A stretch of 63,969 bases of DNA, the filler included, from Licmophora abbreviata (lineage: Eukaryota): NCBI GenBank assembly GCA_900291995.1. It is 19 parts of 19 records of this genome, joined end to end, with 100 filler letters (N's around TTAATTAATTAA, not from the genome) between each part and the next. Parts side by side here need not be neighbours in the genome. Positions count along the whole stretch, not along the records: positions 50,648 to 53,031 come from OLMU01000637.1; positions 53,132 to 55,520 come from OLMU01000638.1; 17 more parts are not named here. One strand, given 5' to 3'. This document shows positions 11,389 to 61,846 of this stretch, piece by piece. The position numbers were made by a program, and so were the translations under genes. Each line of letters opens with the position of its first letter. Within the stretch, counting starts at the first letter, position 1. The notes beneath the pieces are model-generated. The model had not been told where the DNA came from. It did no database searches and worked only from the letters and a program-made list of their open reading frames with translations.

Positions 11389-12451
11389 ATGTTTGCCACC
11401 ACTGCAGCTCTTCGTGTGACGTCTCGTCGTCTCGCATCCACCCGCAGGACTTTTGCGGTAGCTGCCGTACGATCGGCTGCCAAAGAGGGATCCTCAGCTC
11501 GTATTGTCGCCCCCGTTTTGGCCGCCGCTGGCCTGGCCTTGGGTGCGGCAACGTTTGCGTGCGAGGTAAGTGGTTATGGGGTGTTGTTATCAAGAATGCA
11601 ACCGACGACTACGGTGAATGGGATGATACTAACGCTATTACTCTTTCTCACTCGCCATGACTAATTTAAAACTCAAGGAGACTACTTGCAGCTTCATTGG
11701 AAGCAAGTCGGTAGAGGAAGCGGTCAAGACGACGGAACGCAAGTTTGGCACGTACTGGCCTCGCAACATTATGATCTTGTTTGGAGCTCCAGGAGCCGGA
11801 AAGGGTACGCAAGCTCCCAAGATTGAAGACATGCTGGGCATTCCGCAGCTTTCCACGGGGGACATGTTGCGAGCTGCCGTCGCGGCACAGACCGAAGTGG
11901 GCAAGAAGGCGCAAGCCGTAATGAAGGCGGGTGGTTTGGTGTCGGATGATATTGTTGTCGGTATCATCAAGGATCGTATCACGGAAGAGGATTGCATGCA
12001 TGGCTTCATTTTGGATGGATTTCCTCGTACGTTGGCTCAGGCCACAGCCTTGGACGCCATGTTGACGGAAGAGGGTGCGCGCGTGACCAAGGTGATTGAG
12101 TTGGAGGTGCCTGATTCAGTCTTGGAGGAGCGGATTTGTGGACGATGGATTCACAAGAAGAGCGGACGAAGCTACCACGTCAAGTTTGCGCCTCCCAAGA
12201 GTATGAAGATGGGCGCCGATGGCAAACCCGCTCCGGAAAGCATGACGGATGACGAGACGGGCGAGCCGCTCATGCAACGTCCGGACGACACGGCAGCAGC
12301 TCTGGTAAAGCGATTGAAAGCCTACCACAACGAAACTGTCCCTATCCTCAAGCACTATCAGCCAGACGGTATTGTCCGACAAGTCAATGCCAATCAAGGT
12401 ATGGACGGCGTCTGGAAGGAGATCTTGGATGCGTTGAGGCGAAAAGCTTAG
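11389..12451 (+). CDS. adk: Adenylate kinase with a mitochondrial-type presequence
   Basis: P-loop GAPGAGKGTQ, STGDMLR, GFILDGFPRT, LID region and QRPDD. Arg/Ala-rich leader MFATTAALRVTSRRLASTRR. Intron 11566-11677. Confidence 0.95.
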
Positions 12452-46234: not shown

Positions 46235-49200
46235 ATGAGAAACACCATCATGATGGCCGTCGAAGCAGCAAGAAGTCGGCGCTCTGCATCGTGGCGTGCA
46301 ACGGGTCTTCCGAAAGCTACACTCGTCGCTTTTCTTGTCATCCTGGTGACGGTCCATAGTTTCGTCGTGCCTTCGAACCAACTGTTGTACAGATTCACTC
46401 CTACTACTTTTAAAGGTAAACGTNNNNNNNNNNNNNNNNNNNNNNNNNNNNNNNNNNNNNNNNNNNNTTAATTAATTAANNNNNNNNNNNNNNNNNNNNN
46501 NNNNNNNNNNNNNNNNNNNNNNNAACGCAAAAAGGAGCGACAAGGAGAAAAGCAGAAGTCAAGTCAAGTAGAAGCTCTCGATCATCGCGATGATGACCTG
46601 CCGACGTCTCTCTCGGATGTCACGGATGATCCGACGTCGCTTTCGGATCTTTCCACTGATGGCGTGTGGAATGCGTCGTCCTCCAATACCTTCGGGTCGC
46701 TGCTCCTACGATTACAAAAGGAAGAAGAGGAAGAAATGAGAAAGATTGCATTGTCATCTGATGATACTGCTAATGCGACCACCGTACTAGATCATCAGAC
46801 TCGAATGGCACACTTGGAGAAGAACGCGACCACCACCGTCATACCCCCAAGCGAGACCTTGACTCCAATGGACCGAGAGACAGCGCGCGAGTTAGATGAA
46901 GGCGTGACACGATCATCTCGTGAGCTGCTACTGGAAGGAGTGAGAGTTCTGGAGAGTTCCCCTCTCTCTGAATACTCGACGCGGACGACCCGTACATCAG
47001 CTACCACGAAAGATGAATTTGATCCGCGGCTCTTGCTGCAGAGAATGCCATTGAGCATGCCGGAGCATTACAGTGATCGAATCGGACGAGACATGCGACA
47101 CTTGGCTGTTTCGATTGCTTCCAGTACTGATGAAGTTTGGCAGTGGCGGTTGTTTTGTCAAGAAAAGGGAGGCATACTCCCTTTGCTCCAGTGTGTCCGT
47201 GACGGCGTTGCAGGATTGGAGCCGCTCGATCGACGCGGACGTCGCACGAGGCGTCGACAACGACGTACCAAAGTCGCCCTACCCGCGACACCTGCCTTGG
47301 AGGAAGACTTCTTCGTAGCTTGTACCGCTTGTCGTTCTCTGCGTGACTTGTGTGCCTTGTCGCCTGAGATGGCAGCCATCTTGACTGATGGTGTTCTCCG
47401 GGTCAAATGAGGCTTGGACATCGCCCAAGTCAAAAAAGGGATCTAGCAGCTCCCAGCGACAGAAAATACAACGCAGGAAGGGCCTCCGCCGAGTGAAGGT
47501 TGAGTTGGGGAGTCAGAGTCGCGGTCCTCTGTCAGATTTTGTATCGTTGCTGCAGCATGCCAACGATCTTGAACTGACGCGCGAAGCTAGGGACATTTTT
47601 AGAGTAAACGATCGCCGCAGTCGACGAGGTATGTTTCACTGGCAACATCTGTTGAAATCTTATATGCCGCTCATCTTCGTTCATAAATTTCAGACGCACG
47701 CCAGCGAAGCAAACTGTACGTGCTGCAGCTCCTACTTGCGATGGCTGTTGCTAGCGACGACGCTATCCAGGCATTCCGATCCACGCCCGGACTTGTGGAT
47801 GCTGTGCTCGCATCTTCGTCATATGCGAGAAAAGAAAGAACCCGTCGTTGGCTCAGGTATCCTGTCGAGGTGGCTAAGCGCTGGGTTCGCGTATCCAAGA
47901 TAGAGGGGGACGTCGCCGAGAGTGAGGAGGCTTTGCGCAGCCGCCCGTTCATTGAAGCCGCCTCCTTGGGCGACGACTTGCAGGGAAGAGTACGAGGGAC
48001 CGCCAATCAACTGCTTGCTGCCATCGGATGCAACCAATGGATACCAAAGATCCCCGGTCAACGTGGTTTGCGCATTCTATGCATCGACGGAGGAGGCTCG
48101 AGAGGAATGGCGGCCGTCACATCTCTGAACTGTCTGGTAAATGCCATGGGGAATGCTGAAGCCTGTGACACCTTTGATATGATTGCTGGAACATCGACTG
48201 GGGCAATTATTGCTTTCCTGGTTGGTCTTCGACGAGAGTCTAGTGGACAAGCGCGGGAACGATACAACGTTCTCATTCGGAAGATCTTTGTGAAATCTGC
48301 ACTCAGCACACCGTTGATGCTCTTTACGACGGCAACATACGATGAAGCGCCCTTCATGGTAATCTTGAAGGACATTCTCGGTGACAACTCAATGCTGGAC
48401 AGTCGGTCTGATCCTGCGGTCCCGCTTGTTTTTGCTGTTACGTCGAAAATGTCATCTACGCCGACTCACGTCTCACTATTCCGCAATTACAACTACGCTG
48501 GGGGAGAACTTCGCGATCCTTTCACCATCAATCCGGAAGAAGCACGTGAAGAGTTAGATCTTCCACTTGCAATTGAGCATGAGACGATTCGCTCGTCTCA
48601 TTCTCCCAGCCGAGCATCATCTGGGGAAGAGACAAAGCAGTTTGCTCCTGGTGCCAGACTATCACAAGACGCGTCTCGGCATCCTGGTTCGTTCCGAGTA
48701 CTTCAGAAGCATGCTCTCCGAGCTTCCACGGCTGCGCCAACTGTCTTCAAACCAGTCTTCATGGGTGGCGAAGTGTACTGTGATGGTGGGATCGTTGCCT
48801 CCAATCCAGCTGCAGTTGCCATTCACGAGGCTCGAACTCTGTTCCCTGATATCCCAATTGAAATGGTGGTATCCATTGGAACGGGAGGTAGGTTTCTGTC
48901 TCCAAAAGTTTNNNNNNNNNNNNNNNNNNNNNNNNNNNNNNNNNNNNNNNNNNNNTTAATTAATTAANNNNNNNNNNNNNNNNNNNNNNNNNNNNNNNNN
49001 NNNNNNNNNNNCCCTGATATCCCAATTGAAATGGTGGTATCCATTGGAACGGGAGGTAGGTTTCTGTCTCCAAAAGTTTTCACTCTTTGCGCAAAACATC
49101 TAACGTGTATCTTTCAAATTGTTTCAGGGTTCACGGAGGAAAAGAGTGCCCCTCGTATCGGGTGGGACGGCATCATTGGCCAGATCGTCAACAGTGCAAC

Positions 49201-50448: not shown

Positions 50449-50979
50449 CGTTCTTCTACCAAGAGACGTTAAAAAGTGTTTCTCTTCTGTCCCCTACCTC
50501 CTTGGTGACCTTTGAGGGAGCAGGAGGTTTGTTGGAAGAGGGCCATCNNNNNNNNNNNNNNNNNNNNNNNNNNNNNNNNNNNNNNNNNNNNTTAATTAAT
50601 TAANNNNNNNNNNNNNNNNNNNNNNNNNNNNNNNNNNNNNNNNNNNNCACAAGTCGGTTTTCGATGCCATCGTATCGGGACAAGCCTCTTGTATCTTTTA
50701 AACGATCTCCCTTCGTTGAAGTGTTGCTGGTGTTTATGCAGTCTTGGAAAGGACTGCATTAACTATAGTATGTTCGTCTCGTCCTTTAGGTTGTATCGTT
50801 CGTCCCGCGGAGGTCCCCTAGCAACCGTGTACGCGAGCTCTTTTCAAAAGTACTTTCGTGCAATCGAGTAAAACCATGTCACAGAATTGCTACATTAATT
50901 CATAACATCGGTACGTAATCATGCAAAACTAATAGAGATCTGGTCATACAGTACGTTCGTGCCGACAAATACACCGCGC

Positions 50980-53900
50980 TTAGTCTTGGACGTCAGTGGC
51001 CAAACCACCGTCTCCGTGATCGACCATGACGTAGCCGTCATGGATCGGATCAGATCCAAGAGTACCGACAAGAGATTCAATGTATGCTGAAGAGCTTACG
51101 TGTTCAATCTCCTTGCGTGCTTCCTCCAATTTTCCAGCAATGTCGAGGCGTTCCGCTTCAGCCTCGTACCCGGGCCTGCCTACGAAGTCTTTCAGATATT
51201 CAACATGACTCTTCCAGAGAGCAATCTCCCTGTTCTGTTTCTTCACGAGACGGCGGCGGTACCATTTGCTGTTGACGAGTGACTCGCGCGTAAACATTGC
51301 GCGAATCTCGGGGTCCTTGATAGACTTGCCATTGTAGTGCCCGTATGCCATGACATGAAGGACAGCGCGAAGCGGGGGGCAAGCGTCGTCGATAATGCTA
51401 TCCTCAAAGTACAGCTTGGCAGACTTCTCCATGGCTTGGGCAATGTTTTCAATGCCGTCGACGAAAACTTCCATATTCTGCGTCTCTGGCTGGAGCATAT
51501 CCTCTGTGAAAACGCCAGACGGGTTGTCGAAGATTCGACAGAAGAAGTAGTGAACAAAGCGCTTCGTAATACGGTATCCGAGACGAGATGCCGGGATCGT
51601 GCGTCCTTCGTATTCAAAATCCTCGACCGGTTCCAAGAATCCCTTCTCGATCATGTATTTCGGATCGCGTTCCTCTTTTGTCATGCGGCACCAGAGCTCA
51701 GGCACGAGAAGACTGATGTCATGATCGACTTTGTAACGTGGTCCGATCCAACCAGCAGCGCTACTGAAACCTCCGTATTGCGTGAGAATCATCGAGACAA
51801 GCATGTTATTGAGATCAGCGGTCGCACCAATGGCGTTGAAGGGACCCTTGCTGAGGGCGCCCTCCGAGCCTGCCCCGGTTGTGCTTGGACTCTTGCCGGT
51901 CACACAGCAAACGTAGTCCATGAAGAGTTCCGGAAGTTCTTGGTAATGAATCGGGTTGTACACACACAGTGGACGAATCTTCACGCCATTGAGCTCATCG
52001 GGTGGGTTATTTCTGCGACCACCGAGCACACCGGCGACTGGGAACGTGCAAGGCTCGTGAACCGACAGGCGACGGTAAAGACGAGCACCCAGCTCGGCCA
52101 GGTAACGATCCCGCGGAACGGAGATATCAGGACGGACCTGCAAGTAGCGCGGATTCTTTGTTGGCTTGCCGTCAACGAGACGTGGCTTTGCGGAGCAGAT
52201 GTTAATTTGGTCAGGGTTTGCAGCCGCGTCAGTCATGTGTTTCTTCATGGGTTCGGTCATGACGTCGTAGAAATAAAGCTCATCCTTGTACAGCTTCATT
52301 TCATCAGCACTGATGGGCTGGAAGTTCGAGCAAAATAGGCCGTACTCTGACATATCTTGCTCTGTCTGCTTGTCATAACCAGGATGGATGGCGTCGTCGG
52401 GTCTCTGGAAGAGTCGCCATTCACAGTTCTGGGAAATCTTGACAGAAGGATAATTATCGTACTCCGACGGAAGTCCGTAAACTTGTTTGCGAGGGACGAC
52501 TATACTGGCCGTGATATCATCTTCCATCTGGACCTTGTCAGCCGCGATGAAGTCCTGTCGAAGCTTGTAGTTGCGCCATGTTCCGTTCTTCCAAAGACCG
52601 ACGCGAAGGTAAGTGCCGACGAGCTGCCGATCCTTGAACTTCAGCTCGTGTCCCGGAACTCCGTTGGTAATGTCCACTGTGAAGTTGTTTCTCCAGGTCT
52701 TGCCCATCGCCTCGCTGTGGTTGCTCTTGATAGCGAAGATTATCGCACGAATGTGATTCGGAATCTTCTCCACAAACTCATTATGTTCTGCCGTGTATGC
52801 ATCATCAGGTGTGAGCAACTTGATGACAGAACCAAGGGTGCGATCTACAGAGAGAATTGGACGCGAAGGATCACTGTGATACGCCTTGTACTCGGGGAGG
52901 ATTGCGTCGCTGTAGTTACGATCAATGATGCTCGCGACCAAATCCATGTCCTCGTCATAATCTCCAATAAAGATCGGCCCATGAATGACTGCGTCGTTGA
53001 GACTCTTCGAAATCTCGGACTTTCCACCACCNNNNNNNNNNNNNNNNNNNNNNNNNNNNNNNNNNNNNNNNNNNNTTAATTAATTAANNNNNNNNNNNNN
53101 NNNNNNNNNNNNNNNNNNNNNNNNNNNNNNNGATCGGCCCATGAATGACTGCGTCGTTGAGACTCTTCGAAATCTCGGACTTCCACCACCACTGACAGTG
53201 GATGGCTTGTGACAAAACGTCGGTTCTGCGAGTGTTCCAACCAAGCGCCATTTGGACACAGTCGGATGGCGGTTTACCAAGACCTTGTATCCACTCGGAT
53301 GAACGTAGACGTGGTTGGGAAGCAGACGAATCGACTGAGTCTCGCCAGTCGACTTGTCTGTGAATGTGGCCATCTGCGAGTGCAGACTTAGTTCAACATC
53401 TTCCGGCATAATGTGAATGTTGGGGTATATCTTGTCCGTGGCGTATCCCTCAGGGTGACACTCCACAGTGTCGCCTAAGAGTTTGATGGCATCCTCATAG
53501 ACGTAAGAGTTGGGAACAGCCTTTGGCGGGACGATGACCTGCATATAACGCGGGTTCGCGATAAAGTGTTCTCCAAGGTTGGCAGCTTTGAACGCGAGGG
53601 CCCCTCCGGCGTGCTCCTCTTCAGCAAGACCAAACACGTTGGCAGTCAAGCCAATTTGTGTCTTCACTTCCTTCTTGCAGTAGCCTGGATACCGATGAAT
53701 GAGATACAATCGTTGAGAGGATGATGTTATTGCTTGTTGCACCCAAAATTCAACCTGCATCATTTCAGAACTCACCAAAGTAGTTATCAGCCAGAATCGT
53801 AACCATGATGCCACGTTCATCGCGGCACGTAATCTTGAAGGGCTTTCCACCGTTGTAGAGCTCCTCTGGATCACTCCAGCACATACCAGTCGCCTTTTGC

Positions 53901-54901
53901 TTTTCGCTCGCCTCGTCGACATGGGGCAATCCTAACTCTGTCTTTAAACACTTGCGCAAATGCGGAGCCAGCACGACACATCCGGTCGTACCCGTCCAAT
54001 GTGCGGTGTCGAGTCCACTGTCGTTTTCCGGCAAGCTGGGATCACCGGCGTTCCCGAAGATACTTTCTACGAAATCCAAATTGGCCACGCAACCTCCTGG
54101 CACAAAGAAGCGTACCTCCAGACGTTTCTCAGCGCTGACGCCGGGAACTTCCGGGCATGCCAAAGGACGGAGGAGCAGCGAAACCATAGTTTCGGCCGGT
54201 TTGGGCCACTTCGAAGTGTACGGGATCTGATTGAGATCGGTCGGGGGCTGGAGGGCCGTCTTCAAGAGACGAGCGTACGTCAGCAATGGAACTGGAATCT
54301 TGTCGGCGGGGACAGGCAGTCCATAGTCGGCGACATGAAAAACGCCCTTAGTGGTACGCTTATCGTTGAGAGGATTGTGTAAGACACTGTTCTTGGCGAG
54401 TCGATAGCTGTGGGCGAAAGAAAATAGTGAGAGAGGAAATCATGAGCCAGACTATTGTGCGATGTAGAAATCAGATGGCGCGAACACACACACACACCTA
54501 TCAATCTCCGTGTTATGAAACTCATTCGACGCTTGCGGAAACGAGAGTTCTCGAGCGAGACCGTATCGATCGACTGTCACTGTCTTACTGGGAAGATTTA
54601 CCGACTCTCCTGTGGACTTCAGAACGTCGTCCAGGAAGTTCTGGATACGCTCGTCAATAGGACAGAGGTGACTTTCCAACAGACGGGACTGCTCGCGGTA
54701 GACGCGGAACAAGTCACTTGCCAGATTGAGAATGTTCGCATCGTCGGCCTTGTCCGTGGGAACTTCAAAGCCTTGTGCAGCGAGTTTGACGGCGAGAATC
54801 CGATGAAGTGCTTCTCGATCCACCGCGGCAGCTTGGCCGCCTTCTCGTTTCAGTCCGACGAGACGGACGAGATCTGGCTTGTCCGAGGGGGCAACTACCA
54901 T
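50980..54901 (-). CDS. PPi-type phosphoenolpyruvate carboxykinase (PEP carboxytransphosphorylase)
   Basis: RTTKGVFHVADYGLPVPADK, NLDFVESIFGNAGDP, HWTGTTGCVVLAPHL, ADNYFG|YCKKEVKTQI, EEEHAGGALAF, HKPSTVSGGGKSEISKS, KVQMEDDITAS, RLFQRPDDAI, YNPIHYQELPELFMD and GKSPSTTGAGSEGALSKGPFN. Introns ~54408-54498 and ~53685-53775. The linker at 53032 has overlapping flanks. Confidence 0.85.
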
Positions 54902-55168
54902 TGCTGGTGATGATCCTTGTGTTCTTCGTGATGGCAAACAAATGTACTGTGTGGTAATCGGTTGATTTGTGAGCCGCATCAAGATATCTTGTGAGCTTTT
55001 CTGTTCGCATTTTGCTTAGTATTGGGTTCGCATCGAGCATCCTTCTGTTCCAAAGAATTTGGAACGTTGAAGTTTGATGAGCTCAACTTTAGAGCTCGTA
55101 GCTCGTCCAAGTAGTTAGAATAACGTATTATGTAGCGTATATTTTGCCTTCTATCCACGTCGTAAGTT

Positions 55169-55241
55169 GCTCACATAGCTCAGTTGGCAGAGCACCACAT
55201 TCGTAATGTGAAGGTCGGTGGTTCGATCCCGCCTGTGAGCT
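55169..55241 (+). tRNA. tRNA-Thr (anticodon CGT)
   Basis: Acceptor stem GCTCACA/TGTGAGC, D-arm GCTC-AGTTGGCA-GAGC, anticodon loop TT-CGT-AA and T-arm GGTGG-TTCGATC-CCGCC. A T-run (Pol III terminator) follows and no CCA is encoded. Confidence 0.95.
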
Positions 55242-55620
55242 TTTTGTTTTGCCTCGATCACTAAACTGGCTTGCCTTTCGGCAATTGAGAAAATGAAAGT
55301 AGGCACCTTGTAGTAGGTACCCGGTAGAAGTGGGGAGCCATTGCGTAAGCCCTGAATGTTCTACTGAAATATTCTTCACCGTCGTCCTCGATCGTCGGTC
55401 GAACCAAAATAGTTCAACGGTCGGCGGCCAGGGTTGTCGCGTGCGTTCGTGATGTCAGATGCCCCTCGTCGTCGTCACGATGACGAGCACTTGGCGACGA
55501 AACGACGAATGAATGACCTCNNNNNNNNNNNNNNNNNNNNNNNNNNNNNNNNNNNNNNNNNNNNTTAATTAATTAANNNNNNNNNNNNNNNNNNNNNNNN
55601 NNNNNNNNNNNNNNNNNNNN

Positions 55621-56341
55621 TGTTGCGGACGGCCGTCGAATCCAAGGCGTTCTCCATGAGATCGAGAATAGGTTTCTCGTCTTGACCTTCCGTAGCCTTG
55701 TTAATATTGGCAACGTAGGTGGCATGATGCTTGTCATGATGAATCTTCATGGTGGGTGCGTCAATGTAGGGCTCGAGGGCTTCAAAGGGGTACGGAAGAT
55801 CTGGAAGCGCATAGGCGTTGGCATGTGCGGCAGGAGCCGCAAGAGCGACGCCCGCCGCGAGGCCCTGTTGGAAGAGAGCACGACGAGACGACGGAGCCGA
55901 GTCTTTTGATGATATTGCAAAAGAGGAGAGACAAGGGAACGGAGTACATGTTAGGAAAGGGTAGATTTGGAAGCCATACGAGCGACGCTGAAAAAAGAAT
56001 GCAGTAGGAGGTGATATCTGGTGACTCGACTTTCAATAATCACGATGATCCTTCACTGTCGGGCGAGACAGAAAGATTCATCCATTTCCGTCAAGGAAGT
56101 CAATCAGAGCGAAAACATGTGTCACGGCCGCATCTTATTCTTGGCTCTCCAAGCACGCGTTGCCAAAGAGACACCAGAAGCCATCATAAAGTCCAAAGAT
56201 ACCGCGCGTATCTTTCGTCGAGTTCCGCCGTGTTCTTCAATATGACACTGTCACTCTCTTCTTACCAGTCTTCATGGTCAATGACGACCAGGCAGACACA
56301 GATCCTGCCAAGAGAAACGAGAGAGCCAGCGAGAACTTCAT
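55621..56341 (-). CDS. Fe/Mn superoxide dismutase with a tripartite plastid/thylakoid-lumen leader (3' part lost in the gap)
   Basis: [38 protein letters not shown]. Exon 1 [25 protein letters not shown] is joined by intron 55903-56265 to [30 protein letters not shown]. Confidence 0.88.
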
Positions 56342-57461: not shown

Positions 57462-59451
57462 CTATTTCTTTTCGGTGGCTCCGAATTCAGTCTTGAGGAT
57501 ATCGAGCAAGATAGGCATCAAGTCCTCTTCGGCCAGTGGCACGCCCTTCTTGTAGGGCTCCAGTGACAGATGCGCGTCCTCGCCGATGCGCCCGCCCACA
57601 AATATATTGCATCCAGGAACGGCCTTGGCCTTGCCGGACTCCTCGTCCATCTTCTTGGCCGGGGCGCCCATGATGCCAATGTCGGCCACTTGAACTTGAC
57701 CGCAACTGTTGGGGCTGTGTATGTGATTGACGAACAAGACAAAGAAAAAGTCGTGGATGAGCGCAATGACGTTCTTCCATTCAACAAGCGAACCTCAATA
57801 CGCCAACTTACCAACCAGTCCAGTGGATTCGAATGGGTCGGTCGACGGAAACCAGTGATTCCAGCTTCTTGCCAATGGTTTCGGCATTGAACTTTGTTTC
57901 GATAAGAGCGAGACTGCAGAACTGTGCGCCTGTGCAACTCACAACGTTGCCCTCGATGAATCCTGGATTTACGGCAAGCCTGGAGTCCCCAGAAAGAGCT
58001 GCCTCCGCCAAGAGTTCGTCAACCTTGGATGCATCGACGTTCGGGAGAATGATATTCTGCTCGACCGTCAAGCGGATCTCGCCATCCGAGTACTTGTCGG
58101 CGAGGTCAGCGACGTCGCGACATTCCGTTTGACTGAGGCGACCGGTAGGAACGAGGATTCCGACACGGACCAGACCTTCCTGAGGCTGCTGGTGAACACC
58201 CAACAGCTCGCGTCGTTCAAAGGGCTCTGTGGGGGCGACCTGAGCATTGTCGATCTTGACACCTCGGTCATAGCTCTCCACTTCCTTCACAACAGCCTCC
58301 TTGAACTCTGCCACTCCATACTTTTCGACCAACCACATGAGGCGAGCTTTCTGTCGATCCTTGCGCTCGCTCTCGTCACGGAACAGACGAAGAATCGCTT
58401 CGCACAAGGTCACCACAGAGTTTCGGTCGGCAGGAATCCACATGTTGGACTCGACTGACTCGGCAACACGTTTGATGGACATGTAACCACCCAGAACAAC
58501 ATTAAACCCCATTTCTCCCGTCTCGGCATGAGCACAGGGCTGCAGACCAATGTCGTTGATATGCGTGTGGGCATAATCGTCGCGGGATCCAGAGACAGCA
58601 ATGTTGAACTTGCGCGGCAAGTTACCCCACACTGGGTTGCCACGCGTCTGCGTGACGGGATCCAGACTCACCAAGTCGTTCAGGGCGTTGCACAACTCAC
58701 GTGTATCGACTAACTCCTTATCATCGATGCCTGCCAGAGGACTTCCGACCATGTTACGAACATTGTCGAGGGCCGACTGGAAGCTTGTCTGGTTGCGAGC
58801 GTGTAGTCCATCGATAATGTCGGGGGCATCTTCAATCTTGACACCACGAAGCTGGATATTGGCGCGAGTGGTTATGTCGACCACGCCCCCCTCTTTGCCG
58901 TACTTTTCGACACAGTCGGCGTAAAAACGCATCTGATCCGCGTTGACAATTCCATTTGGAACCTTCAGTCGCATCATGAACTGACCGGGAGTGCGCTTGT
59001 TTCGGTGGAGCATACCGACGTACTTCAGTCTCTGTGTAAAACATGGATAGAAGTGTGAGCAGAAGCTTGGTCAATGCTTGTCTATGCATCCGATATCCTA
59101 TAAGTCACGTACCGAGTCGAGATCGGCCTTTTCGACTTCGTCCCAAGTCATTTCACCGTCTCGAATTTTTCGGGCGTATTCGTAAACGTCGACCCATGCC
59201 GACGTAGCATCCTTCTTCATCTTGATCTTTTCAATAGGACTCCCAATCTTGGCTCTCTCAAGAGTTTCTTCCGGCAAGAAGGAGGCACCTGTGGCCTTTC
59301 CCGTGCGCGTGTCAATGTCGTTGTCAATGGCCGAGACGGAAAGCGGGGAAGACTGTTGTCGCATTCCGAAGGGTGATACTGATGTGAACGCATCACATGA
59401 GGCAGAAACCAGAGCTCCAGTGAGCAGCAGATTCCTTGATGATAGCTTCAT
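57462..59451 (-). CDS. nirA: Ferredoxin-nitrite reductase, plastid-targeted
   Basis: Leader MKLSSRNLLLTGALVSASCDA-FT, then FMMRLKVPNG, DITTRANIQLRG, DNVRN, NLPRKFNIAVSG, SCTGAQFC and HWTG|CPNSCGQ (siroheme/4Fe-4S cysteines); two introns. Confidence 0.95.
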
Positions 59452-60032: not shown

Positions 60033-61460
60033 CTACAAGTTGGCACGCATGTCATCTTCCTCTTCGCCCTCCATAGGCTTGCCGTAAACACGGACACGGC
60101 TAATACCACCATCTGGAAAGATGCTGACACGCACGTGCGTTAGAGCACGCGTCGCATTCTGAATCTGTTGCAAGTCGGCGTCAAACACGTGTTCGGCATC
60201 GGGCGACATGCGCGTTCTCGCCAAGAGTGGAAACCATGCGACGTGCTCGCCGTGGACGATTTGTTCTTCTGTGATTCCTCGCTCAGCGAAACATCCCTCC
60301 ACACGAACGCTTTCGGGATAGTTGCCGCGAAAGTGCTTGGTGTCGAGCAAGATGCGAGTGACACCGTCCGGTGCCATCTTGCCGAGCTTCAAGATGGCCC
60401 AGTCGCTCAGATGACTGTCGACCAATCCCGTGTCTTCGTCTGTCACCAAAACACTAGGACGTTCAGGATTACGAGCCGTCTCCCATCCGTCTCCCATATC
60501 TTGTCCCAGAGTAGAACGAATCAAGTTGGACGGAGTGCCGTAGTGCTGGTTGGAAGAAGCGACACCCACGCCGCCGTAGTTAGCGCCCGATAGTTCGGGA
60601 TACTCGTACACCTGTTGGGATGGAGGCCAAGAGGTGGTGCAGTGGGGAACGACGGTGCAGATGCGGCCTGTGGTGATGGGAAGATATAGAGGCGCATGCG
60701 GTGGTTCCGGCGACTCCGTAGAGACGCCCCAGCATCGTACACGAGCGACGCCGCCATCGGGGAAGTAGCTCACTCGCAAGTGCGTTCCCACCATGGGAGC
60801 TGGTAGTGTGAAGTAATGCATACGAGTAGCTTCATACCCAGGGCGCAAGGGAGTCTTGGACACGAGATCCCGCCAAGCGACTGGATGACAGGCAATATGA
60901 GCCTGAGCAACCTCGTCGGGAGTATGACCGACACCTTGGCGACCACCGCGCAAGAGACGATCCATCGCCCCGGGCAGTTGAGACACGAGCGTCGATTCTT
61001 GTTCGCAGCTCAAATCGGCAAGCTGGATAGAGATCATCGGAGTATTGTTGCCCGTAAAATGCGCCGTATCGATCTCGATTGCCACGAGCTCGGCTCGGTC
61101 CGCTAGCTGAATAATGCACCAGTCATGGCCTGCTTCTCGGCGTCGACGGCTCTCCCACCCGTCCATGACTTTGCCCTGCTCGCAATATAGATCGTCGACG
61201 AAGATGGGAGGTCCATCCTGGAGGAGATTGTCAGCGCAGGCGAACCATTCGTCTGTGGCGAAGAGGCACTTGGCTCCCTCGGAGGAGGAGCATAGGTTCT
61301 CGTAGGAGTCGTAGGGAGACTTGGGCTGCACGTTTTTGGCTAGTTCCGTTGCTGCCTCCTCCACGTGAGTGGTGGTCTTGTCGAGAGTGCGGACATCGAG
61401 GGTGGAGGAGATAGAGGAGAGCTGAGAAAAGAGCGATGTGCTGCCAATTTTGGTTACCAT
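60033..61460 (-). CDS. alc: Allantoicase
   Basis: Two allantoicase repeats: FATDEWFACADNLL, MDGWESRRRR..GHDWCII, IDTAHFTGN, FPDGGVARVR; and MGDGWETAR, DTKHFRGNYP, FPDGGISRVRVYG. Confidence 0.93.
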   Translation of the reverse strand: MVTKIGSTSLFSQLSSISSTLDVRTLDKTTTHVEEAATELAKNVQPKSPYDSYENLCSSSEGAKCLFATDEWFACADNLLQDGPPIFVDDLYCEQGKVMDGWESRRRREAGHDWCIIQLADRAELVAIEIDTAHFTGNNTPMISIQLADLSCEQESTLVSQLPGAMDRLLRGGRQGVGHTPDEVAQAHIACHPVAWRDLVSKTPLRPGYEATRMHYFTLPAPMVGTHLRVSYFPDGGVARVRCWGVSTESPEPPHAPLYLPITTGRICTVVPHCTTSWPPSQQVYEYPELSGANYGGVGVASSNQHYGTPSNLIRSTLGQDMGDGWETARNPERPSVLVTDEDTGLVDSHLSDWAILKLGKMAPDGVTRILLDTKHFRGNYPESVRVEGCFAERGITEEQIVHGEHVAWFPLLARTRMSPDAEHVFDADLQQIQNATRALTHVRVSIFPDGGISRVRVYGKPMEGEEEDDMRANL

Positions 61461-61846
61461 GGTGGAGTTCGTTGGAAAAAGTGTGCAGAATTCACGTTCG
61501 AAAAAGAATTCCGGAGCGTGGTGCCGCAACCAAGCGTTCTTCACTTCTACTCTCTCGCATAAATGACTTGATTTGGATGCGTTGTGGCATATCACAGACG
61601 CTAGAAAATTGAAGCTGTGCTTGTGCCACAATGTGGCCTGCCGCAAGTCGCCACCACGAGGTTCGACGTCGCTCATTCGGTGACGTAGCTCGTGTCCCTG
61701 ACGTACACAATCAATAACCCTCATGTCTGAAGCTTACAAATATATTCACCATACAAAACGTCGCAACAGTACCGGTGCGACATTTGTTCTCGCTCGAAAG
61801 AGCTCTTCTATCTTCTGTCTTCTTTGACGAAGGAGCCTTGAAGACC

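Follow-up and report, generated by a model that had tools for sequence, protein, structure and literature searches.

The stretch of DNA analyzed here (the window; 63,969 nucleotides [nt]) comes from Licmophora abbreviata (GenBank assembly GCA_900291995.1) and is made up of 19 contigs, with the same 100-nt linker (N44-TTAATTAATTAA-N44) at each of the 18 junctions; the linkers are spread over positions 1960-62283. A gene on its minus strand had been interpreted in an original prediction as encoding a pyrophosphate (PPi)-dependent phosphoenolpyruvate (PEP) carboxykinase (PEPCK) in the nucleus of a photosynthetic stramenopile. We placed the limits of this gene at an ATG at 54901-54899 and a TAA stop codon at 50982-50980, and joining its exons by coordinate gave a coding sequence of 3582 nt with one stop, at its end, that encodes 1193 amino acids (aa; Table 1). 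The protein starts with MVVAPSDKPDL and also contains STVSGGGKSEISKSL, and both exon joints (..NTEID-S-YRLAKNS.. and ..ILADNYF-G-YCKKEVKTQ..) were gapless against 13 homologues. The spliced translation and these joints therefore verified the coordinates, the length of about 1,200 aa, the two introns, and the N terminus previously given for the gene.

Together, the analyses below indicate that the locus is very probably a nuclear gene that is functional, belongs to a raphid pennate-type diatom, and encodes PPi-dependent PEPCK (PEP carboxytransphosphorylase, EC 4.1.1.38). The gene is intact and adds a member to an enzyme family that is already known, and NCBI already names a diatom orthologue.

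Table 1. Coordinates of the PPi-PEPCK gene and of the contig junction within it
Feature	Position	Strand	Remarks
Exon 1	54498-54901	-	404 nt; residues 1-134 and 2 bases of codon 135
Intron 1	54408-54497	-	90 nt, GT..AG; retention gives an in-frame stop; NTEIDSYRL gapless in homologues
Exon 2	53776-54407	-	632 nt
Intron 2	53685-53775	-	91 nt, GT..AG; retention gives a frame shift and a stop; DNYFGYCKKEVKTQI unbroken in homologues
Exon 3, overall	50980-53684	-	artificial linker 53032-53131 inside
Exon 3, upper part	53182-53684	-	runs to the GGG codons
Exon 3, lower part	50980-53031	-	GGGKSE codons to TAA; 683 aa
P-loop-like motif GGGKSE	53014-53031	-	same as 6K31 residues 491-496
Artificial linker	53032-53131		100 nt, N44-TTAATTAATTAA-N44, within exon 3
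Redundant contig end	53132-53190	-	59-nt copy of 52972-53031, one A short

Family identity and integrity of the gene

We searched each coding piece of the gene against all PDB chains at E<=0.001. The lower part of exon 3 matched residues 491-1150 of 6K31 (E 2.1e-186) and exon 2 matched residues 127-331 of the same chain (E 3.1e-80), while the upper part of exon 3 and exon 1 matched residues 322-475 and 3-106 of 8E1U (E 1.2e-27 and 1.4e-10, respectively). On 8E1U the four pieces lay in order at residues 3-106, 112-320, 322-475, and 473-1128, with an equivalent arrangement on 6K31, and with both chains combined the coding pieces were collinear with PPi-PEPCK over residues 3-1150. Only two distinct PDB sequences were matched per piece, the Actinomyces israelii enzyme AiPEPCK (6K31) and the PPi-dependent PEPCK of Propionibacterium freudenreichii (8E1U), and no ATP- or GTP-PEPCK chain was returned at this threshold. 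This full-length collinear match, which includes the comparison of all four pieces with the Propionibacterium enzyme that had been called for, bears out the proposed PPi-type identity, and the composition of the match list is in line with the earlier statement that PPi-type PEPCK has little sequence similarity to ATP- and GTP-PEPCKs.

The window protein shares identical GGGKSE, YCKKEVKTQI, FQRPDDAI, NPRYLQVRPD, GRRNNPP, and TGKSPSTTGAGSEGAL blocks with both solved enzymes in the PDB alignments. It differs from them in that its gene is eukaryotic, nuclear, and intron-bearing, the protein is 40 to 60 aa longer, and similarity is weak over the first 130 residues (E 1e-10 and 2e-7). In an alignment of 12 diatom and bacterial sequences (A1), GGGKSE was invariant in 12/12, and more than 200 other positions were invariant within the C-terminal 683 residues. 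YCKKE.KTQ and EEEH were kept in all 11 of the 12 rows that cover the region, as well as in the window protein. The SGGGKS motif and the long conserved blocks on which the original prediction had leaned are thus retained. The YCKKE, EEEH, RPDDA, and GGGKSE blocks may resemble elements known from GTP-PEPCK (Lys-Lys, His, Asp, and kinase-1a). ATP-PEPCK (EC 4.1.1.49), which includes the mitochondrial enzyme commonly considered in diatoms, and GTP-PEPCK (EC 4.1.1.32) catalyze the same overall reaction with another phosphoryl donor, but neither gave a detectable sequence match in PDB, and the window protein is about twice their size; passages of PMC10441589, citing Chiba 2019, describe a fold common to the PEPCK types.

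Scans of the four pieces against Pfam-A and NCBIfam returned no family, whether of PEPCK or of any other domain. The PF26300 model was probably absent from the Pfam-A copy searched, because the homologues carry precomputed PF26300.1 labels: 117 of the 120 homologues listed do so, including a JGI protein that was the top database match (P0001, 87% identical), and the remaining three are without any domain. The best database matches were 71 to 87% identical to the window protein. A single chain of about 1130 to 1200 aa without another domain would be expected of a family member, and the window protein conforms to this at 1193 aa. Relatives longer than 1196 aa number 253; among the 120 of these that were listed, lengths were 1197 to 1293 aa, all carry PF26300.1, and none has another domain. 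The family is compact: of 1.84 billion cluster representatives, 1503 matched at E<=1e-3 and 338 did so at E<=1e-30. Relatives are encoded in the genomes of at least 579 prokaryote species. The ESM Atlas gave no usable match.

One of the linkers, at 53032-53131, sits exactly at the SGGGKS motif, and the integrity of the gene turns on how this junction is read. Contig ends overlap at 2 of the 18 junctions, exactly over 68 nt at 48912-49011 and with a one-base difference over 60 nt at 53032-53131. The two copies at the latter junction agree at 59/60 nt, with GGAAG in the upper copy and GGAAAG in the lower, and the upper copy taken literally shifts the frame after GGG to give GGGSPRFRR.. in place of GGGKSEISK... 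A real deletion at the GGGKS codons would make the locus a broken pseudogene, for which the literal reading of the upper copy speaks. However, the deletion lies within a stretch that is present twice at contig ends, and the lower copy is intact and reads GGGKSEISKSL, as does every homologue. Furthermore, the public DNA runs X1 and X2 each have one contig with an additional T after 53180 (plus strand), which is the missing A, although a second X1 contig with five mismatches is without it. The remaining 680 codons downstream are open and strongly conserved. Since the X1 and X2 contigs carry the missing base, we take the one-base deletion at 53132-53190 to be a contig-end error and the frame to be intact, and we give a pseudogene very little probability.

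The public contigs matched to 53132-55520 were short, with cover in no more than 9 of 30 bins. The sole record marked as possible RNA (X4, 54800-54905) had adapter ends and was uninformative. A 240-nt record of run X1 (record 3) matched the end of exon 2 (53775-53818) with 4/44 mismatches and then ran straight into YCKKEVKTQI coding sequence; this record is an intron-less relative in the same sample, from another organism or a paralogue.

Host assignment, relatives, and origin

The gene resembles its surroundings in composition. The coding sequence has a GC content of 0.525 and a third-codon-position GC content (GC3) of 0.599, compared with 0.517-0.558 and 0.551-0.617 for five neighboring open reading frames (ORFs), and nine related bacterial loci have GC contents of 0.57-0.68. 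Other ORFs in the window encode eukaryotic housekeeping proteins (SGT1, SAC3/GANP, START+PH, Memo, Ofd1, emp24, WD40, and adenylate kinase). Two contigs away from the PEPCK gene, an ORF at 57811-59070 on the minus strand encodes a ferredoxin-nitrite reductase with NIR_SIR domains that is 84 to 90% identical to diatom proteins; its named matches are exclusively diatoms, and several are labelled chloroplastic. The two introns, the eukaryotic neighbors, the chloroplast-type nitrite reductase, and the host-like GC content all support the photosynthetic stramenopile nucleus that had been proposed.

Three pennate diatom proteins with names were orthologues with a start and a length (1189 to 1195 aa) like those of the window protein. 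The Seminavis robusta protein (P0016), which NCBI and UniRef name "PPi-type phosphoenolpyruvate carboxykinase," is 76.7% identical over 1191 residues, and those of Nitzschia sp. Nitz4 (P0012) and Cylindrotheca fusiformis (P0022) are 76.5% and 73.1% identical over about 1185 to 1191 residues. The homologue of Conticribra (Thalassiosira) weissflogii has 64.3% full-length identity. The closest homologues outside diatoms, P0033 and P0047 (Polyangiaceae), belong to the Polyangiales (Myxococcota) and are 66.5% and 65.1% identical over their full length, with genes that are intron-less, unlike the window gene, and that sit in loci of 57 to 67% GC.

The closeness of these bacterial proteins raises the possibility of a bacterial contaminant or a mis-scaffolded bacterial contig. 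Bacterial members share 59 to 67% full-length identity with the window protein and are its closest relatives apart from diatoms, and the contigs that carry the gene (50648-53031 and 53132-55520) hold no other protein gene and are joined to diatom genes by linkers only. In contrast, the gene has two GT..AG introns whose excision gives a frame collinear with all homologues, as the original prediction had argued against contamination, its GC and GC3 equal those of neighboring diatom ORFs and its GC lies below that of the bacterial loci, its nearest relatives (73 to 87% identical) include proteins from transcriptomes or genomes of Seminavis, Nitzschia, and Cylindrotheca, and it groups with diatoms in a clade with a support of 100. 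Because of its composition, its diatom relatives, and its eukaryotic and diatom neighbors, contamination appears very unlikely, with almost no weight left to it.

We built trees on the C-terminal region with FastTree (191 rows) and with a short IQ-TREE search under LG+C20 (63 rows hand-picked from the 191), with non-diatom eukaryotes absent from the tree; 4/80 loci and 6/120 proteins with fewer than 600 residues covered were dropped from the FastTree set. The window protein fell into a 14-row clade with Seminavis, Nitzschia Nitz4, and Cylindrotheca, with a support of 100 in the Shimodaira-Hasegawa-like approximate likelihood ratio test (SH-aLRT) and agreement in FastTree. This clade was sister to a C. 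weissflogii clade, and the joint 21-row clade also had an SH-aLRT support of 100. In both trees the 21-row diatom-containing clade lay inside a 36-row clade (97) with P0047 and P0033, the latter being 100% identical to a gene of a genome (G144) of the same order as the Polyangiaceae bacterium genome of locus L001. Further out were Polyangiaceae/Sorangium and Gemmatimonadota and, beyond these under midpoint or outgroup rooting, Planctomycetota, Gammaproteobacteria, Acidobacteriota, and Bacteroidota. The stem of the diatom clade is long, at 0.24 changes per site in the IQ-TREE analysis. The gene is patchy in the order of the G144 and L001 genomes too, with matches (loci L081-L090) in 9 of the 301 genomes sampled there. 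One genome (G002) has two copies, which share 67% and 54% identity with P0033.

Since the diatom clade is nested among Polyangiales-type sequences, the trees suggest one old horizontal transfer from a bacterium to diatoms, and on the question of horizontal versus vertical origin that the original prediction had left to a phylogeny, this nesting fits a single transfer. We propose that a Polyangiales-like (Myxococcota) bacterium was probably the source of the gene, which would have entered diatoms a single time, before the pennate and Conticribra-type clades diverged, and would have gained its introns and host codon usage after the transfer.

Other features of the window are mentioned here for completeness. 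A tRNA-Thr gene (anticodon CGT) at 55169-55241 on the plus strand is divergent from the PEPCK gene and lies 268 nt upstream of its start; contigs from three runs are about 90% identical to it before their flanks differ, as would be expected of a conserved tRNA. Full-length relatives of the nitrite reductase are about 600 aa long, so the N-terminal part of that protein, with any targeting peptide, must lie in another exon. An ORF at 55621-56032 on the minus strand encodes the N-terminal domain of an Fe/Mn superoxide dismutase, preceded by a long N-terminal leader, and is cut by the linker at 55521-55620; because the C-terminal superoxide dismutase signature was found nowhere in the window, the remainder of the gene lies in a real assembly gap. 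The ORFs for allantoicase, with two allantoicase repeats (60033-61733, minus strand), and for adenylate kinase (11633-12451, plus strand) look like ordinary nuclear genes.

Cellular location and proposed role of the enzyme

The start of the window protein is level with those of the bacterial proteins and of 10 diatom-type homologues, in agreement with the earlier view that it has no signal or transit peptide. Among the 10 full-length homologues of the diatom clade, six begin level with it with MV..VA, and long presequences are absent from all 10. The two diatom-type forms that exceed 1196 aa (1228 and 1217 aa) also lack an N-terminal extension, their added length being internal or C-terminal. 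We found no hydrophobic signal-peptide core, and the C terminus (..ATDVQD) is without an SKL-type ending. Since an N-terminal extension is absent, the enzyme is probably cytosolic.

The alternative is that an upstream start or an unseen 5' exon targets the enzyme to an organelle, either the mitochondrion or the plastid. An in-frame ATG lies at 54977-54979 on the minus strand, 26 codons 5' of the accepted start and with no intervening stop, and may be an alternative start or lie within the 5' untranslated region; passages of PMC10441589 and PMC5516115 also describe the ATP-PEPCK of Phaeodactylum as mitochondrial. However, the 26 extra residues would bring no hydrophobic signal-peptide core, and neither the shared MV..VA start nor the longer diatom-type forms described above point to a presequence. 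We therefore regard organelle targeting as unlikely and a cytosolic enzyme as the better supported location.

By homology, the enzyme would catalyze PEP + CO2 + Pi <-> oxaloacetate + PPi in the cytosol. By analogy with the bacterial and amoebic enzymes, which reportedly favor carboxylation, its most likely role would be that of an ATP-independent anaplerotic PEP carboxylase, with the phosphoryl bond of PEP being saved as PPi for PPi-using enzymes. We favor the anaplerotic direction because PPi-PEPCK is reported to prefer carboxylation kinetically (passages of PMC12547629, citing McLeod and Holyoak). Passages of PMC8100219 give the metal requirement of PPi-PEPCK and state that most organisms that own it also keep an ATP- or GTP-PEPCK. 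The dark or anoxic PPi economy and the C4-like cycling raised in the original prediction are speculation. Another possibility is that the chemistry has changed in diatoms, either to another phosphoryl donor or acceptor or mainly to oxaloacetate decarboxylation, such that PPi-PEPCK would be only a label of ancestry. The long stem of the diatom clade would allow for this, and we found no enzyme assay of any diatom PPi-PEPCK in the full-text literature searched. Against it, the window protein retains every motif block common to the two solved enzymes at 59 to 67% full-length identity to bacterial members, and we consider changed chemistry quite unlikely.

Several points weigh against the interpretation as a whole. 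Family membership depends on precomputed labels and on homology, both pairwise and to PDB chains. The Polyangiales donor is based on two rows of known identity and on a root placed by outgroup or midpoint. The upstream ATG could lengthen the N terminus, and the linkers are the sole tie between the gene-bearing contigs and their diatom neighbors. No splice joint was seen among the public contigs on 53132-55520, which were of DNA type or uninformative. The direction and role of the enzyme in vivo are drawn purely from analogy, and no genes for pyruvate, phosphate dikinase (PPDK), PPi-dependent phosphofructokinase (PPi-PFK), or proton-pumping pyrophosphatase (H+-PPase) were present among the 37 large window ORFs scanned.

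Prior knowledge and meaning for diatom metabolism

Whether diatom homologues had already been reported was a question raised with the original prediction, and the answer is yes, in that the S. robusta orthologue is named a PPi-type PEPCK in NCBI and UniRef. Little is therefore new in the identity of the enzyme, and the modest gain is the nesting of the diatom clade among bacterial sequences of Polyangiales type. Entamoeba histolytica PPi-PEPCK1-3 belong to the same enzyme family by name; they were reportedly described by Chiba et al. in 2015 (J Biol Chem 290:23960), and the family is said to have been known since that year. In a full-text literature search, we found no paper discussing a PPi-type PEPCK in diatoms. 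Passages of diatom reviews (among PMC10441589, PMC5516115, PMC11736642, and others) mention only a (mitochondrial) PEPCK and PPDK, those of PMC8434439 describe PEPCK-ATP as the only PEPCK of plants, and those of PMC11002985 cite Chiba 2015 solely for pps/ppsA carbohydrate metabolism.

The distribution of the gene among diatoms may be patchy. Phaeodactylum and Thalassiosira pseudonana were not among the named matches in the lists of homologues and of longer relatives, each of 120 entries of which a minority carry names, and this is a hint only. C. weissflogii, which has a homologue, is central to the diatom C4 debate. A combined scenario that we hold tentatively, and which is rather doubtful as a whole, is a single uptake from a Polyangiales-like bacterium, patchy retention (in benthic raphid pennates and C. 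weissflogii among the named records), and cytosolic ATP-free carboxylation of PEP that regenerates PPi.

Debates on diatom carbon metabolism, including C4-like cycling, anaplerosis, and gluconeogenesis, weigh PEP carboxylase, ATP-PEPCK, malic enzyme, pyruvate carboxylase, and PPDK. A PPi-PEPCK gene is nonetheless present and annotated in several diatom species despite the silence of the literature searched. The gene would also illustrate cleanly how central-metabolism genes of bacterial origin become domesticated, here with introns and the codon usage of the host. We do not claim a new system; the value of the finding lies in the annotation and in a lead for physiologists. If the proposed activity and location are true, a cytosolic, reversible, ATP-independent step between PEP and oxaloacetate would alter flux models for the species that own it, and if the combined scenario is true, this patchily retained enzyme could aid C4-acid labelling or survival in dark, anoxic sediment.

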